Assembly: GCA_011364925.1 (NCBI GenBank)
Contig: RDOA01000050.1
Span: forward strand, 1 to 26,775
Length of the DNA stretch: 26,775 nucleotides
From: Promethearchaeota archaeon
Lineage (GTDB): Archaea; Asgardarchaeota; Lokiarchaeia; Sigyniarchaeales; SOKP01
Direction of reading: 5' to 3'
The notes under the pieces are model-generated. The model did no database searches. It was not told the DNA's origin and worked only from the letters and a program-made list of their open reading frames with translations. The translations under genes were made by a program, and so were the position numbers. Numbering within the stretch: position 1 is the first letter of the stretch; the number at the start of each line of letters is the position of its first letter. Shown piece by piece: positions 1,015 through 7,730 of the stretch.

Positions 1015-1383
1015 TCAAGTAATTTTTTTCTTTTGAAATGATTTTTTATATGCCCATTCCATTAGAGGTAACATGGCATCCCTAACTTCAATCCCATCTT
1101 GAGTTAATGTATATTCAACCCGTGGTGGAATTTCAGCAAAAATTTCTTTCTTAATGAGTCCAGCTTCAGTGAGTTCTTTTAACCTATCACTTAATGTTTT
1201 AGGACTTATCCCAGTTAATTCTTTCATGAGTTGATTGAATCTGATTCTTTTATGATTACTAATCGTACCAATTATCACCAAAGCCCATTTTTTACTAAGA
1301 ATATTAATGATGCCTTCAATTGGACAAAAACAAAAACAACTTCCCTCCTTTTTATTACAGGGAACCTCAGTTTCCTTTTGAAT
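1015..1383 (-). CDS. HxlR (DUF24) winged-helix transcriptional regulator with Cys-rich N-terminus
   Basis: RFNQL...ISPKTLSDRLKEL...EIPPRVEYTLT is the HxlR signature. The frame continues upstream of the tracked start (1281) through CNKKEGSCFCFCPIEGIINILSKKWAL to a TGA at 1390-1392. Start uncertain: ATT at 1383 lies 6 nt after GGTGA. Confidence 0.9.
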   Translation of the reverse strand: MQKETEVPCNKKEGSCFCFCPIEGIINILSKKWALVIIGTISNHKRIRFNQLMKELTGISPKTLSDRLKELTEAGLIKKEIFAEIPPRVEYTLTQDGIEVRDAMLPLMEWAYKKSFQKKKIT

Positions 1384-1785: not shown

Positions 1786-1799
1786 AAAAAAAAGAAAAA
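1786..1799 (-). terminator. Oligo-T terminator closing the minus-strand small-ORF array
   Basis: Minus strand reads TTTTTCTTTTTTTT downstream of the last small ORF. Confidence 0.45.
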
Positions 1800-1826
1800 T
1801 CATTTATTGGGATTTAGGGGGTTTAA

Positions 1827-1883
1827 TTATACAATTCGGAACTGATTGCTCAATCCTACCCTTCTCGTTCCTTTCTTTCTCAC
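1827..1883 (-). CDS. Possible 18-aa peptide (MRKKGTRRVGLSNQFRIV), may be degenerate
   Basis: GTG start embedded in the SD-like GAGGTGA (1886-1880); TAA at 1829-1827. SD-to-start geometry is poor. Confidence 0.2.
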   Translation of the reverse strand: MRKKGTRRVGLSNQFRIV

Positions 1884-1974
1884 CTCATTCTTGTAGTTAA
1901 ATCGTAAGTTTTTGGGTTTTTTTGGTTAAATTTGGAATTTTATATCGCGTAAAAAATTGTCAAATGAACGAAAA

Positions 1975-2046
1975 TTAAAATTCTAAACGCTCGAACTCAT
2001 TACCAGAGTTCTGAATTATTATCCATCTTTTTTCTGGGTTATCCAC
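1975..2046 (-). CDS. 23-aa peptide MDNPEKRWIIIQNSGNEFERLEF
   Basis: AAAAGGAGGT (2064-2055) is 8 nt before GTG at 2046; TAA at 1977-1975. Resembles the neighbouring peptide. Confidence 0.65.
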   Translation of the reverse strand: MDNPEKRWIIIQNSGNEFERLEF

Positions 2047-2093
2047 TTTTTCTTACCTCCTTTTTCATATGAGTATTTCTCTACTAAAAATTA

Positions 2094-2171
2094 TTAAAAC
2101 CGGAGCGTTACGTAATTTTCGCGATCAACGCTCAATTCATACTTTAGTTTTAACTTCTCAGATTCATTCAT
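2094..2171 (-). CDS. 25-aa peptide MNESEKLKLKYELSVDRENYVTLRF
   Basis: AAAAGGAGGT (2189-2180) is 8 nt before ATG at 2171; TAA at 2096-2094. Confidence 0.7.
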   Translation of the reverse strand: MNESEKLKLKYELSVDRENYVTLRF

Positions 2172-2261
2172 ATATTTCAACCTCCTTTTGCTATTCCTCT
2201 ATCTCTTTATCATTGGTATTAGGATTTTTTCCTGGTAATGAAACTTTAAAAAAATTTAAAT

Positions 2262-2534
2262 TTAAAAATTAGTTCGATAATTTCTATATAAACTCGCGTC
2301 GATATTGCTTTTTACCGATTTAATGTTTTTAAGTTCCTCGGCATATCTCGCGTTTAATTTAGCTTTATTGAATAGTTTTCTAAGTTTTTTACTAATTGGT
2401 TGTGATTTATCTCTCATTACTTTTTTCATTGCCACTTCCGCGACCTGCACCTGAGGCCTGCGCACCTCAGGTGCCTGGGTCTGGAAAGGAATCTGGCTAC
2501 TGGCGTTGGCACTTCTTTCTTTTGCTTGGGCCAT
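2262..2534 (-). CDS. Small basic hypothetical protein (90 aa; alternative start at ATG 2429)
   Basis: Open frame with SD-like AAGTGA upstream. Lys/Arg-rich C-terminal half ending ...YRNYRTNF. The 5' part overlaps a GC-rich hairpin. Confidence 0.7.
   Translation of the reverse strand: MAQAKERSANASSQIPFQTQAPEVRRPQVQVAEVAMKKVMRDKSQPISKKLRKLFNKAKLNARYAEELKNIKSVKSNIDASLYRNYRTNF
2431..2511. other. GC-rich stem-loop, candidate structured RNA element
   Basis: Perfect 10-bp stem GCACCTGAGG (2447-2456) / CCTCAGGTGC (2465-2474) with an 8-nt loop, extended by GACC/GGTC, TTCC/GGAA and GCCA/TGGC. 52 of 80 nt in 2431-2510 are G+C, against very AT-rich flanks. Confidence 0.7.
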
Positions 2535-2606: not shown

Positions 2607-2673
2607 TTTTATAGTTTTACTAAACTAAGTTCGAACGAACTTCGAACTTCATCACGAACAAAAAACTTAAATA
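2607..2673. promoter_or_regulatory. Back-to-back archaeal promoters with central palindromic operator
   Basis: Minus-strand TATA CTATAAAA (2614-2607). Plus-strand A-rich BRE followed by CTTAAATA (2666-2673), ending 22 nt before ATG 2696 (leaderless geometry). Inverted repeats AAGTTCGAA-N5-TTCGAACTT (2627-2649) and TAGTTT-N4-AAACTA (2612-2627). Confidence 0.65.
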
Positions 2674-2695: not shown

Positions 2696-5662
2696 ATGAG
2701 TATACCTAAATACCCTCCAAAAGAGATAATCACTCCTATGAAAATAAGTAAAGATTATGAACAGATTATACTTTGGATGCTCTACAACAATAACCAGTGT
2801 ACGTGGTCTGATCTTAAATCAGATCCAGTAAATATCAGTAACGCAACTTTGTCCAAGTATCTCAACATCTTAACTAATATCGGTTTCATTGAGAAAGAGA
2901 AAAAGGGTACCTATATAATTACTCCTGAAGGTCGTAAACATTATACCGAGCTTCAAGTTAAAGATTTGCACGAAGAAGTATTAAATTATCCTCCTGAAAA
3001 GATTAAAAGAAAAAGGGATTACGAAGATTGTATACTATGGATGCTTTATAATAATGAGTATTGCAAATGGTCAGATTTTCTTGAGGATCCACTTAATATT
3101 AATCAATCTTCATTATCAAAAAGTCTGAATGCTTTACAACAAAAAGATTTTATTGAAAAGGATAATCGTGAATATCACATCACGAATTCTGGAGAATTAG
3201 AATATTTCAATATGTTAAAAAAGTATGATTTAGATCGACAATCGATATTAGACGAAGAAACGAAGAGAGTCGAACTTATTACTGATAAAGTAGCGCAATT
3301 TTTTGATGAGTACAAGATCACTGATGATGGTGTGAAGTATAGGTTTTTAAATATGATAATGAGACTCGATTATACTAAGTTCGAAGTAACTTTATCGGAC
3401 GAATTAGATTTCAATAAAATTTTGCTCTTTTTATCAATTAATCACCCTGATAATTATCCCAATCACATTACTCCTAGAGATTTTGCTTTAAAGTACGATA
3501 TAAGTGTGACGACATTAAATTTTTTTATAGAGAAAATCGTGGAAGACAAGCTTTATGCGATAAAATTCTTCAAATTAAATGTCGGCGATAAATTTACTTA
3601 TTACATCCAAGCTGAGGAGCGATTAGAGAAAATTCTAAATGTGATTATCGAAGATTATATTAGAAAATTCACATATTTAAGCAAGTTTCGGAAAAAGGGA
3701 AGTGCTCAAGATCTAGTGCTTGATATTAATAAATTACTTGAGGATATAACAAACGATATTTGTAGTAAGTTATTTCACGAGGAATTAAAACCTTCTCTTA
3801 AAATGTTTCTACCCGAGTATATCGAGCATCTAGCCTATAAATTTGAAACAGAGAAGAGCTTAATTGACCAAACGGACAAAATTAAAGGTATTGCGTTTCA
3901 AAATGTATTTGAAGTTATTCAAAGTTTTGGAACGACGGAAGCGGCGAGTACTGTAAGTAAACCAATAGAAAGCGACTCTTTTTACTTTTTGCATAATAGA
4001 ATTTTTGATACCCTGGAGATAATATATTTGTCAAAATTAGATTTCTTCCGTATGCCTGAGTTTAAGAACGATTATTTCCCCATGAATACTGATCTCTTAA
4101 CTGCAATAGAGGATAAGTTGTCGAAAGGAAGTTTATTGAAAGTTAATGATTTGCTTACAAATAATATTGAGAATTTGAATGAAATTGAATTGATGATTCT
4201 GAGAGACATAATTTATACAAATAATGGAGAATTCGATGAATCAATAAAACTGGATCAGAAAATCATAGATAAATATCCTAATGAATATGTTGGATATCTC
4301 TTTCAATCGATAACTTATTTCTTAATGGGGAGGCTCAAAGATGCTATAGATATCGTTGATGCGGGGTTGAGTAAATCATCGAATATTCTTTTGACTGTTC
4401 AAAAAGCGCAAATTCTTATTAATTACGATCACGATAAAGCTGTAAAAATCATTGACGAAAAATTTGAAGATAATTCTGATAATTTTGCTTTGCTTCGAAC
4501 AAAATTCCTGACGGTGATGACTGATAAAGAGTGTTGTATAGGAGCAATAGATAAGCCTTTAGAATTGATAAATTCACTAATAGATTCCTATCCAAAAGAT
4601 TCCGAGCTTCTAATTTTAAAAGGTTTATTGTTTATAGTAAACCACAAATATAAGGAAGCAAAAAATTGGATAAAAGACAACATAAAACCTAACGTTTTTG
4701 AAGATAATCCTAGAATTGACATTGCTGCGTATTTAGTTTTAGCGTATTCTTACTTAGCGAGAGGGAAATTTGAGAAAGCTTTAAATATGGGTAAGAAAGC
4801 GGAATTTCACTATCCTAATCACCCACTTTCGCATATCATTAATGGTTTTATTCATGGTTTCAATCTTGTTTACGATTTTAATTCGGATAAAGCTAATCCC
4901 GAGCTTTTTAAAGAGGGATTTAGGAGAGCAATATCCCTACAACAAAGTGAAAAAAAATTGTCTAGGTACTATCAATTATACAGCTACATTCTTAACGAGA
5001 CTGATGGATTGGAAGAAGCATTAAAAGCAATTAATAAGGCGATTGAGTTAAGCCCAGAACATTACGATATATCTCAAACAAAAGCTCACTTATATTTAAC
5101 TTTCCCAGACAAAATAGGAGACTCATTTAAATTTTATGAAGAATTACACGAAAAATTCCCCCATGAAGATAGGGAGATACGTCAATTGACTTCTTTCTCT
5201 TACTATGCTATCGGAAAAGTAAAAGAGGGAGCAGACCTTCTTGAAGAGAGTCTTAAACTATACCCTGATTCAATAGGTATGTATAATAACTTAGCGATAT
5301 TTAAGAGTTCATTAGGAAAGTTTGAGGAGGCTATAGAGTTAATAGAAAAAGCGATTACTATAAATCCAACTGAAGCAAATTTATTCGATACCTACGGTGA
5401 AGTATTGATGTATGCAAAACGGTATGAAGATGCTATAGTAAAATTTACTCAAGCGTTAGAAATGAATCCTGTAGGATGGTTCGCGTTCCATACTTTTCTT
5501 AAACTAGCTAAATGTTATAAAGCTCTAGGTATGGAGGATAAATCTGACACCTGCTTCAATAAAGCAAAAGAATTAACGGAAAAAGTTATCCCTGGAAAAC
5601 GAAAGATCTATATTGATAAATTAGAAGAGAGTATTGATGAACTAGGCAAAGTGCCTATTTAA
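2696..5662 (+). CDS. Tandem winged-helix (MarR/ArsR-like) + C-terminal TPR protein, putative transcriptional regulator
   Basis: Two homologous wHTH units (YPP..DYE..ILWMLYNN..C.WSD...P.NI....LSK.LN.L....FIEK....Y.IT..G...Y), a probable third HTH (ITPRDFALKYDISVTTLNFFIEK), and many TPRs (e.g. MYNNLAIFKSSLGKFEEAIELIEKAITINP). Confidence 0.9.
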   Translation: MSIPKYPPKEIITPMKISKDYEQIILWMLYNNNQCTWSDLKSDPVNISNATLSKYLNILTNIGFIEKEKKGTYIITPEGRKHYTELQVKDLHEEVLNYPPEKIKRKRDYEDCILWMLYNNEYCKWSDFLEDPLNINQSSLSKSLNALQQKDFIEKDNREYHITNSGELEYFNMLKKYDLDRQSILDEETKRVELITDKVAQFFDEYKITDDGVKYRFLNMIMRLDYTKFEVTLSDELDFNKILLFLSINHPDNYPNHITPRDFALKYDISVTTLNFFIEKIVEDKLYAIKFFKLNVGDKFTYYIQAEERLEKILNVIIEDYIRKFTYLSKFRKKGSAQDLVLDINKLLEDITNDICSKLFHEELKPSLKMFLPEYIEHLAYKFETEKSLIDQTDKIKGIAFQNVFEVIQSFGTTEAASTVSKPIESDSFYFLHNRIFDTLEIIYLSKLDFFRMPEFKNDYFPMNTDLLTAIEDKLSKGSLLKVNDLLTNNIENLNEIELMILRDIIYTNNGEFDESIKLDQKIIDKYPNEYVGYLFQSITYFLMGRLKDAIDIVDAGLSKSSNILLTVQKAQILINYDHDKAVKIIDEKFEDNSDNFALLRTKFLTVMTDKECCIGAIDKPLELINSLIDSYPKDSELLILKGLLFIVNHKYKEAKNWIKDNIKPNVFEDNPRIDIAAYLVLAYSYLARGKFEKALNMGKKAEFHYPNHPLSHIINGFIHGFNLVYDFNSDKANPELFKEGFRRAISLQQSEKKLSRYYQLYSYILNETDGLEEALKAINKAIELSPEHYDISQTKAHLYLTFPDKIGDSFKFYEELHEKFPHEDREIRQLTSFSYYAIGKVKEGADLLEESLKLYPDSIGMYNNLAIFKSSLGKFEEAIELIEKAITINPTEANLFDTYGEVLMYAKRYEDAIVKFTQALEMNPVGWFAFHTFLKLAKCYKALGMEDKSDTCFNKAKELTEKVIPGKRKIYIDKLEESIDELGKVPI
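2711..3205 (+). repeat. Intragenic duplication of the wHTH module (about 2711-2944 and 2987-3205)
   Basis: Near-identical motifs ILWMLYNN, WSD, LSK, FIEK and Y.IT in both units. Confidence 0.85.
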
Positions 5663-5776: not shown

Positions 5777-6757
5777 TTACCTTGAGATGTCGCGTTTTTT
5801 GAAGATAAAATATCCTAAAAGAATTAATGCAGCTGCAATGGTTAATATAAGAATTAGGGACCCTAAAGGAGAATAGTAATCGTTACGAGTAAATGTAACC
5901 TCCCAGGTGTCAGGATCAAATTCTTGAGTATATAACCCAAACCCGTAAAGAAAGTACAACATACTTTCAGAAACACCCCCCGAAATGATATTTAAAATTC
6001 CAATATAGCTATTAAACAAATGATATGCTAAGTCGAAGTGATATAACTGAAACTGGACATATATTGGAACTTCGTTATCGCCTAAATACATATACATAAA
6101 TAATGGTCGAAAAGTCATAAGTATGAAAAATGTAATGATAATAATTAATAAGGGTACTAATATTGCATTTCGCGTCTTTTTAAAAATACAAGAAAAACCA
6201 AAAGCAATGCTTTGAAAAAAGAATTGGACAATCAGAGAAAAAAGAAGATTTATTACGAAGAACTCTGCAATACCGTCAAAAGTATATTTTAGTGGAGCAA
6301 TTAAAGTTATTAGGGACAACGATGAAATGTTTAAAAAGAAACCGAAACATGTGAGTGCTAAATATTTAGTGATTAAAATTTCTCCTCTTGAAATTGGCTT
6401 GCTTATGAGTGTTAACATAGTTCCAGATTTGATTTCCTCAGCAATAAGGGGAGCACCAATTACAGTTAATATAATTGGAAATATTAGACTGTAAGTGTAG
6501 AAACCATATATTAAACCTAAATAATCGTTTAACGAACTTAAATACAACTCATAACCAGGGGGAATCATAAGAATAGCAATTAAAGGTCCCAAAATCATGA
6601 GAATAAAAGAAATAATAAATTTATGTATTTTAAACATGTCTTTAAATAGGGTTTTTTTAAAAAGTATGATGCTCGGTGTTGTGATAATCCCTTTTGTTCC
6701 AGATCTCACAAAATCCGTACTCAGCATATTAATTGTGTCTTCACTTTTGGAAGCCAT
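5777..6757 (-). CDS. ABC-2 type exporter permease
   Basis: Multiple TM helices, the IAEEIKSGTMLTLISKPISRGEILITKY motif and terminal FKKRDI. Start at 6757 (MASKS) preferred over 6772; overlaps the end of the ATPase gene. Confidence 0.9.
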   Translation of the reverse strand: MASKSEDTINMLSTDFVRSGTKGIITTPSIILFKKTLFKDMFKIHKFIISFILMILGPLIAILMIPPGYELYLSSLNDYLGLIYGFYTYSLIFPIILTVIGAPLIAEEIKSGTMLTLISKPISRGEILITKYLALTCFGFFLNISSLSLITLIAPLKYTFDGIAEFFVINLLFSLIVQFFFQSIAFGFSCIFKKTRNAILVPLLIIIITFFILMTFRPLFMYMYLGDNEVPIYVQFQLYHFDLAYHLFNSYIGILNIISGGVSESMLYFLYGFGLYTQEFDPDTWEVTFTRNDYYSPLGSLILILTIAAALILLGYFIFKKRDISR

Positions 6758-7730
6758 TTCTTTTTCCCTCATCTTTATCTATTATATCTAAAAACACATC
6801 TTGAAGGCTTGATTCGGGCTGATAAAAGGATTTTAGAATTAGTCCCTTTTCAACGATTAATTTAGGTATTTCTTTTTGAAATTGTTCGATGTCACCAGTG
6901 TTTACATAAATACTTTTCTCTTTTTCATCAATCCAAGCATTAGTAATGATTTCTAACCCTTTAATCAAGGATAAGAATACTTCATTAGCGTTAGTATCGA
7001 TTACATAAAGATTAGTGGATTTCGAGAACCATTTTTTCGCATTTTGGACGGAATCAGTTAAAATTATTCTACCCTTATTAATGATGGTGACTTTATCACA
7101 CATTTGTTCAACTTCAGAAAGAACATGACTTGAAACAAAAATACTCATGTTTTTGGAGATTTTTCGCACGTAATCAATTATTTTTTTTCTTACTAAGGGA
7201 TCTAAGTTGCTAGTGGGTTCATCTAAAATCAAGAGCTGCGGGTCGTGTATAAGTCCCGCTGCTAATCCAATTTTTTGTTTCATACCCATAGAATAAGTTT
7301 TTATTTTCCGATCTTTATCTTCCGTTAAATCAAAAAATTTTAGTAATTCAAGAGCCTTTTGTTCTGCTATACTTTTTGGAATCAAGTTCAAGCGTGCTAA
7401 ATAAGTCAAATATTCTAACCCTGAAAGTTTTTCGTAAAATGCAGGGTCTTGAGGAAGAAAACCAATAAATTTCCTAGCTTCTTTAGTACCCGCCTTTTTA
7501 CTTTTTAGATAAGCAGTTCCTTCCGTTATTGAAATGGCTCCAATTAACATGTTAATTGTTGAAGTCTTTCCTGCACCATTTGGACCTAAAAACCCATGGA
7601 CTCCTGATTCCATCGTGAAATCAATTCCTCTAACTGCAACAACTTTTTTTTCCCCAGTTCCGTATACTTTTGTGAGGTTATTGGTCCAAATATAATAATC
7701 GTCACGATTATCAAGGGGTGTGGAGTTCAT
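6741..7730 (-). CDS. ABC-2 type exporter ATP-binding protein
   Basis: Walker A GPNGAGKT, signature YSMGMKQ, Walker B LLILDEP, H-loop SSH. Confidence 0.95.
   Translation of the reverse strand: MNSTPLDNRDDYYIWTNNLTKVYGTGEKKVVAVRGIDFTMESGVHGFLGPNGAGKTSTINMLIGAISITEGTAYLKSKKAGTKEARKFIGFLPQDPAFYEKLSGLEYLTYLARLNLIPKSIAEQKALELLKFFDLTEDKDRKIKTYSMGMKQKIGLAAGLIHDPQLLILDEPTSNLDPLVRKKIIDYVRKISKNMSIFVSSHVLSEVEQMCDKVTIINKGRIILTDSVQNAKKWFSKSTNLYVIDTNANEVFLSLIKGLEIITNAWIDEKEKSIYVNTGDIEQFQKEIPKLIVEKGLILKSFYQPESSLQDVFLDIIDKDEGKRNGFQK

Follow-up and report, generated by a model that had tools for sequence, protein, structure and literature searches.

We report two tandem micro-ORFs, pep1 and pep2, in the genome of an Asgard archaeon, and on comparative sequence evidence we conclude that they are most likely real micro-genes, encoding peptides of 25 and 23 residues that are under moderate constraint. 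They belong to a family of small reading frames that recurs, in three types designated A, B and C, next to a large regulator (c0) and a small basic protein (c2). We consider it rather probable that pep1 and pep2 are genuine, separately translated members of this c0/c2 module that act as outputs of its switch and possibly as its ligands.

Genes of 22–29 codons escape standard annotation, and small proteins are little known in the Asgard archaea, to which eukaryotes are more closely related than to any other prokaryotes. The analysis presented here leads from a single locus to a micro-gene family with comparative evidence for translation and with several loci per genome, which is recurrently linked to a large family of winged-helix/TPR regulators (2–8 paralogues per genome). 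Should the peptides prove to be outputs or ligands of the latter, the module would provide a concrete and testable entry into the gene regulation of this lineage; even if they do not, the results show that comparative scans guided by Shine-Dalgarno (SD) sequences are able to recover real micro-genes in the MAGs studied here.

Two micro-ORFs with identical ribosome-binding sites

The window, i.e., the whole stretch of DNA that was analysed, is the complete contig C61 (26.8 kb); the genome has a size of 3.9 Mb and a G+C content of 33%. The close relatives of this genome are Promethearchaeia (Lokiarchaeia-type) MAGs, and the relatives obtained from sediment include the genomes named Loki_b31 and ABR-type genomes. 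Both micro-ORFs are located on the minus strand. The first, pep1, occupies positions 2094..2171 and consists of an ATG at 2171, 25 codons in total, and the double stop TAA TAA; the second, pep2, occupies positions 1975..2046, starts with a GTG at 2046 and runs for 23 codons to a TAA stop, with IIIxN[AS]G as its core motif. The Shine-Dalgarno sequence AAAAGGAGGT is found 8 nt before the start codon in both cases (2180..2189 for pep1 and 2055..2064 for pep2, minus strand), and the two sites are 125 nt apart, exactly as an earlier note on this DNA had described them. The same note assigned to both peptides the pattern M-[DN]-x-x-E-K ... [YF]-x-x-L-x-F-stop, which both indeed fit, except that the start codon of pep2 is GTG and not ATG. 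It also pointed out that the two peptides had escaped annotation. An exact look-up of both sequences in a collection of 15 billion proteins gave no match, and they are therefore unannotated there; likewise, we found no annotation or literature record of either peptide.

The number of SD sequences of this kind is unusual. AAAGGAGGT occurs 3 times in the window compared to 0.26 expected occurrences, a count reached by 0 of 100 shuffled sequences, and 69 times in the entire 3.9-Mb genome. Genome-wide, ORFs of 20–30 aa that are led by AAGGAGGT number seven, three of which are pep1, pep2 and a paralogue of pep1 on contig C101. For comparison, an SD-like 5-mer of any kind precedes approximately 10–18% of the long ORFs of the genome. 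The combination of SD and ORF at pep1 and pep2 exceeds chance.

The third copy of AAAGGAGGT in the window precedes a Cys-rich ORF of 48 aa at 1491–1637 on the plus strand (SD at 1473–1481), which features a CxCxC motif and a terminal CC and adjoins the gene of an HxlR-type regulator (1015–1281, minus strand). The exact sequence of this ORF is not in the protein collection, and the ORF is missing from the syntenic loci.

Evidence for coding

The earlier note suggested a pattern search among related genomes. A search of this kind failed: SD, ATG and [DN]xxEK, combined into a strict DNA pattern and applied to 41 relatives, detected unrelated ORFs only, and profile searches were therefore needed. 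The latter covered first the genus and then the order, and found full-length, stop-bounded relatives with E values down to 1e-15. The type-B profile alone has full-length, stop-bounded matches in at least 13 genomes of the genus (E down to 1e-15), and the pep1/pep2 family as a whole is present in at least 17 of the 42 genus genomes, a count that includes a B variant found at other loci.

The stop-bounded orthologues span 22–29 codons, and each of them has its own A-rich GAGGT ribosome-binding site, with the GAGGT core located 7–9 nt before an ATG or GTG in all copies. There are 15 type-A copies in the genus (23–29 codons) and 22 aligned type-B copies (22–25 codons), and the length differences among copies of both types amount to whole codons throughout. 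The start column of the type-B alignment contains ATG or GTG, depending on the orthologue. Frameshifts, stop codons and the loss of SD or start codon had been named in the earlier note as observations that would speak against the peptides, and they are not what the alignments contain: the orthologues are open, with SD and start in place, and an internal TAG is present in one copy (G050). The fate of the terminal Phe, which was part of the same argument, is mixed. Phe or Tyr ends approximately three quarters of the copies in the genus; however, the aromatic end is not invariant, and the related micro-ORFs of genus g22 have not kept it.

A check for selection, also proposed there, points in the same direction as the open frames. 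The pairwise pN/pS ratio of type A (n=15) is 0.59 in frame versus 0.93 and 0.78 in the shifted frames, and that of type B (n=14) is 0.54 in frame versus 0.93 and 1.12 shifted; the corresponding comparison for type C rests on n=5. Ratios near 0.55 suggest moderate constraint only. Further detail comes from the pep1 paralogue on C101, which matches pep1 in length, SD and double stop. The two share a terminal Leu-Arg-Phe, and their codons differ at several positions, which represents synonymous recoding.

The notion that the pair arose by an old duplication can be retained in part. Such a duplication would be old, because types A and B adjoin in at least 11 loci, where they are found side by side; on the other hand, homology between A and B is weakly supported by their profile cross-matches (E 0.07–0.9).

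The tandem array and its likely transcript end

Inspection of the loci shows that the micro-ORFs form arrays of two or three units, in which three types recur in the order A-B-C. Type B is recognized by its core IIIxN[AS]G and by a C-terminus similar to ERL[DE]F. By sequence comparison we assign pep1 to type A and pep2 to type B of such a tandem A-B-C array. The third unit is decayed in the window: an alignment with the intact type C of four genomes (G005, G002, G056 and G008) places a pseudo-C at 1800..1890 on the minus strand, which kept an SD-like GAGGT at 1886..1882, lost its start codon, and diverged in its body. The same decay of the third unit is observed in G014 and G024. Immediately beyond, at 1786..1799, the minus strand reads T5-C-T8, and each of the seven loci compared has an oligo-T run where the alignment places this one. 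The run is likely the archaeal transcript end of the array.

The regulator c0

The gene c0 (2696..5662, plus strand) encodes a regulator of 988 aa with two winged helix-turn-helix domains and approximately 14 TPR-like repeats, as characterized with Pfam, NCBIfam, a PDB sequence search, AF2 and Foldseek. Pfam identifies TPR_1, TPR_2 and other TPR families, and the AF2 model contains approximately 14 helical repeat pairs arranged in a long superhelix; the middle region of the protein is poorly modelled. The Foldseek matches are generic long TPR superhelices (APC/C subunits, TTC7, OGT, Tom70), and the modelled superhelix of c0 thus resembles scaffolds that hold peptide tails. Orthologues of c0 (≥62% identity) are found only in array-carrying genomes; in one of these (G044) the contig ends after c0, c2 and a type-A unit. 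The N-terminal half of c0, comprising the two winged helices and approximately 300 aa, defines a family with 2–8 paralogues per genome, whose members come in forms of approximately 640, 840 and 990 aa. The paralogues in the same genome (two on C48 and one each on C23, C56 and C43) have no adjacent array of SD-led micro-ORFs, and neither does a c0 homologue with 50% identity from a different MAG (L097), which is accompanied by a membrane protein gene instead.

On the other side of c0, an ABC-2 permease and ATPase pair at 5777–7730 separates c0 from a gelsolin/SAP gene in this genome only. Elsewhere among the syntenic loci, the gelsolin gene comes directly after c0.

The neighbour c2 and the divergent promoter

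The gene c2 (2262..2534, minus strand) is located directly upstream of pep1 on the same strand and is divergent from c0. It encodes a basic (pI 10.6), mostly helical small protein of 90 aa, which is present, unnamed, in the protein collection. The protein has no Pfam or NCBIfam match, and the ESM Atlas returned nothing for it. Ten orthologues were aligned, the size ranges from 90 to 99 aa across the syntenic loci, and the AF2 model consists of a disordered N-terminus followed by long helices. The coding sequence of c2 contains a GC-rich 10-bp hairpin or palindrome (2447..2474, minus strand), which 11 orthologues retain. Its arms show one compensatory double change (G051) and two wobble-compatible changes, and its loop varies between 6 and 8 nt. 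The element could act as RNA or as a site in the DNA.

Separately, we considered the micro-ORFs as mimics of the C-terminal tail of c2 and rejected this idea: the hhalign probability is 0.1–0.2%, and Smith-Waterman scores of 28 pairs compared with shuffles yield z near 0.

The divergent promoter region between c0 and c2 contains an array of GAAGTTC/GAACTTC inverted repeats at 2627..2651. Repeats of the type GAACTnC-N4-GAAGTnC were recognized by eye in 5 of the 10 intergenic regions fetched between c0-like and c2-like genes (L126, L128, L136, L138 and L139, from genera g12 and g22 and a paralogue in g1); the exact 7-bp inverted repeat is restricted to the three g12 loci. The repeats are a candidate operator for the winged-helix domains.

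Recurrence of the module across genera

Synteny of c0, c2 and the micro-ORF array is seen at 13 loci, which come from 12 genomes, with c2 not recovered in two of the 13 (G056 and G005), and the downstream side is variable. Genomes within a genus are kin, and the search was consequently widened beyond the genus. A c2 profile detected c2-like genes in g12 (3 of 5 genomes), in g22 (27 of 54 genomes), and beside c0 paralogues in g1. A divergent c0-like gene adjoins the c2-like gene in at least 13 of the 19 loci fetched, and SD-led micro-ORFs are found 40–150 nt downstream of c2-like genes. Those of g22 and of the paralogous module in G043 have 22–25 codons and a core of the IIIKN type, and the one that follows the c2-like gene in g12 is C-like and has 29 codons. 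A profile of the g22 micro-ORFs matches in 26 of the 54 g22 genomes; at least eight of the matches adjoin c2-like genes, and some of them form tandem pairs. Most of the evidence for linkage comes from related genomes and is not independent. The recurrence in different genera and next to paralogues is our main argument that the peptides would belong functionally with c0 and c2.

Some c2-like genes of g22 have no micro-ORF (L130, L132, L133 and L141–L143). A conserved G-rich/C-rich hairpin is located downstream of them, in which a G5AG5 arm pairs with a C5TCC arm before a T-run.

Family members away from c0 and c2

Members of the family also occur away from c0 and c2, so that the tie between the peptides and c0 is not an obligate one. 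In seven genomes of the genus (L083–L088 and L081), a B variant with the core IIIKT and the C-terminus ERID[FC] is conserved between the gene of the CCA-adding enzyme and that of aEF-2, 230–350 nt upstream of the latter and on the same strand. A pair consisting of a D and a B micro-ORF is found near GNAT/HAD genes, and the type-A paralogue on C101 stands alone near a TIR membrane protein and a Gtr1/RagA-like (Rag-like) GTPase. A second tandem pair in the same genome, at C39:2003-2256 (L099), comprises micro-ORFs of 22 codons, one of them B-like with a KNAG motif, and is followed by a T-rich stretch.

One promoter-like element is common to the stand-alone units of this genome, the C39 array and further small-protein genes. 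The element consists of TTTAAGAGTCCAATCAAAGTTT, approximately 10 nt, and AACTAAATATGTAT, and is located 50–65 nt upstream of SD-led ORFs of 22–78 aa, among which are a type A, a type D of 32 aa and a B-like frame. It was found at C101:27957, C20:56348, C39:1934, C88:9569, C56:18085 and C35:17682, and also at approximately 3020–3090 of L041. The genes with this element may form a small-protein regulon.

Peptide properties and proposed function

The peptides have a charged N-terminus, followed by a short stretch rich in Ile and by a turn with Asn/Gly or Pro (NAG and NP motifs in the middle of the peptide), and their C-terminus is usually aromatic. Both are hydrophilic, with GRAVY of −0.87 for pep1 and −1.01 for pep2, maximum Kyte-Doolittle values over 9 residues of 0.24 and 0.10, and longest apolar runs of 1 and 4 residues, respectively. 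The hydropathy computation yields no signal or hydrophobic segment in either peptide, and there is no transmembrane or amphipathic hydrophobic helix of the kind found in hydrophobic toxins or phenol-soluble modulins.

We propose the following mechanism. The regulator c0 would bind the GAAGTTC/GAACTTC repeats and control the transcript that carries c2 and the micro-ORFs; the hydrophilic peptides would remain in the cytoplasm and act as outputs of the c0 switch; and they may in addition be ligands of the c0 TPR superhelix, feeding back on c0. The ligand step taken by itself, in which the peptides (or c2) are bound by the superhelix, would be plausible for the modelled fold, and we regard it as tentative and on balance rather unlikely. 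Somewhat less likely still is the complete version: an Asgard-native peptide-sensing transcription switch, in which a winged-helix regulator would bind cytoplasmic micropeptides, and perhaps c2, in its eukaryote-like TPR superhelix, and these would adjust its affinity for the GAAGTTC repeats. If true, this would be an archaeal analogue of the RRNPP logic, independently evolved and operating without secretion.

Alternative explanations

The strongest competing explanation accepts the peptides as real and denies their connection to the regulator: c0 and c2 would merely co-regulate or neighbour them, and the peptides would act on an unrelated cellular target with no binding to the TPRs. This is possible, if somewhat unlikely. 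It would account for the stand-alone copies that have their own promoter-like element, common to other small-ORF genes on C101, C20, C39, C88, C56 and C35, as well as for the B variants that 7 genomes have between the genes of the CCA-adding enzyme and aEF-2, and for the c0 paralogues of the same genome that lack arrays. However, c0-like genes, c2-like genes and micro-ORFs are linked in three genera and in a paralogous module, which inherited gene order alone hardly explains.

We consider it very unlikely that the locus is an archaeal quorum-sensing system of the RRNPP type, in which the peptides would be exported by the neighbouring ABC-2 transporter, accumulate outside, re-enter the cell and bind the TPR regulator. 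Small SD-led peptide genes do adjoin a TPR DNA-binding protein, and the ABC-2 permease and ATPase pair lies beside c0, but this pair is an insertion unique to this genome, and the hydrophilic pep1 and pep2 lack a signal or hydrophobic segment. The published signature of these systems (PMC10075063) includes a propeptide of 10–100 aa that is secreted (through a Sec signal or by virtue of a PptAB-type profile, basic plus hydrophobic) and a receptor of approximately 250–500 aa that contains TPRs, with the genes of receptor and propeptide being direct neighbours. Two of these five features are present here, namely the small propeptides (25 and 23 aa) and the TPRs in c0, and three are absent: the secretion profile, the receptor size (988 aa for c0) and the direct adjacency, c2 being located between c0 and pep1. 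Moreover, the DNA-binding domains of c0 are winged helices and not an XRE HTH, and no RRNPP receptor is found among its PDB sequence matches or the Foldseek matches listed.

The remaining alternatives are also very improbable. According to the first, the region works as an RNA, either non-coding or dual-function, that contains the small frames incidentally. The observation that could suggest it is that 20 of 21 copies use CGT for the Arg of the type-B C-terminal motif, at a genomic G+C of 33%, and that short local stems can be drawn around this codon. Against it, RNAalifold predicts 0 pairs over the 21 copies, the 455-nt transcript folds no better than its shuffles (z +0.39), and Rfam gives no match, so that neither a conserved secondary structure nor a known RNA family is seen; frame-specific pN/pS and whole-codon indels favour coding over the RNA reading, to which we give hardly any weight. 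The CGT is a constraint at the nucleotide level for which no consensus structure accounts. In pep2 it is codon 20 (window ~1987–1989); other Arg codons are AGA or AGG.

It is similarly improbable that pep1 and pep2 control in cis a gene located downstream of them, in the manner of leader or arrest peptides such as TnaC or the fungal arginine attenuator peptide. A length of 23–25 codons and a better-conserved C-terminal half would suit a nascent-chain sensor, but a conserved oligo-T run lies at the end of the array, the genes that follow are species-variable and often on the opposite strand, so that the syntenic loci contain no conserved downstream gene on the same transcript, and each micro-ORF has its own SD and does not overlap a downstream start.

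Finally, there is scant probability that type B originated from the beta-hairpin of a Roadblock/LC7 domain and, as a micro-protein, interferes with Roadblock or Rag-like GTPase complexes: the type-B profile matches a 139-aa Roadblock protein of g22 (L056 1255–1671 in G100; Pfam PF03259) over 13 residues that are nearly identical to the type-B core (E 9.4e-5 per genome), and the type-A paralogue on C101 is near a Gtr1/RagA-like GTPase, but this single match, to one g22 protein family, is borderline once corrected for 154 genomes, and none of the 35 Roadblock-like frames of the same genome is among the top profile matches, i.e., there is no enrichment in the own genome.

Comparison with known systems

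Similar in layout are the RRNPP peptide-receptor systems of Firmicutes and their phages (Rgg/SHP, PlcR/PapR, NprR/NprX, Rap/Phr and AimR/AimP), in which a tiny, usually unannotated peptide gene with a strong ribosome-binding site is likewise found beside a TPR DNA-binding regulator, whose TPR domain binds the peptide. The locus described here differs in its archaeal host; in the 988-aa, two-winged-helix c0 as opposed to receptors of 250–500 aa with an XRE HTH; in its hydrophilic peptides without a secretion signal; in the 90-aa gene placed in between; in having two or three tandem peptide genes; and in that c0 has no sequence or fold match to RRNPP receptors.

The phenol-soluble modulin alpha operon of Staphylococcus consists of tandem genes of approximately 20–25 codons, which have their own SDs, encode peptides without a signal peptide, and were long missed by annotation. 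The tandem arrangement of tiny, unannotated genes with an SD of their own and no signal peptide is the same here. The modulins, however, form amphipathic helices and leave the cell through the Pmt ABC transporter, whereas our peptides are charged and contain turn motifs, and the nearby ABC-2 pair is not conserved together with them. The micro-ORFs of type I toxins (Ibs, Ldr) are also duplicated and arranged in arrays, with 18–35 codons each, but they encode hydrophobic membrane toxins that are checked by antisense RNAs, in contrast to pep1 and pep2 with no hydrophobic segment.

A last comparison concerns TPR proteins that dock the tails of their partners, such as Tom70 and Hop with EEVD, PEX5 with SKL, and APC3 with IR tails. 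Although the g22 micro-ORFs lack an aromatic end and peptide docking by c0 is a candidate only, c0 shares with these proteins canonical 34-residue TPRs and fold matches to superhelices of the APC/C, OGT, TTC7 and Tom70 type, and most of the peptides in the genus present an aromatic residue at their C-terminus.
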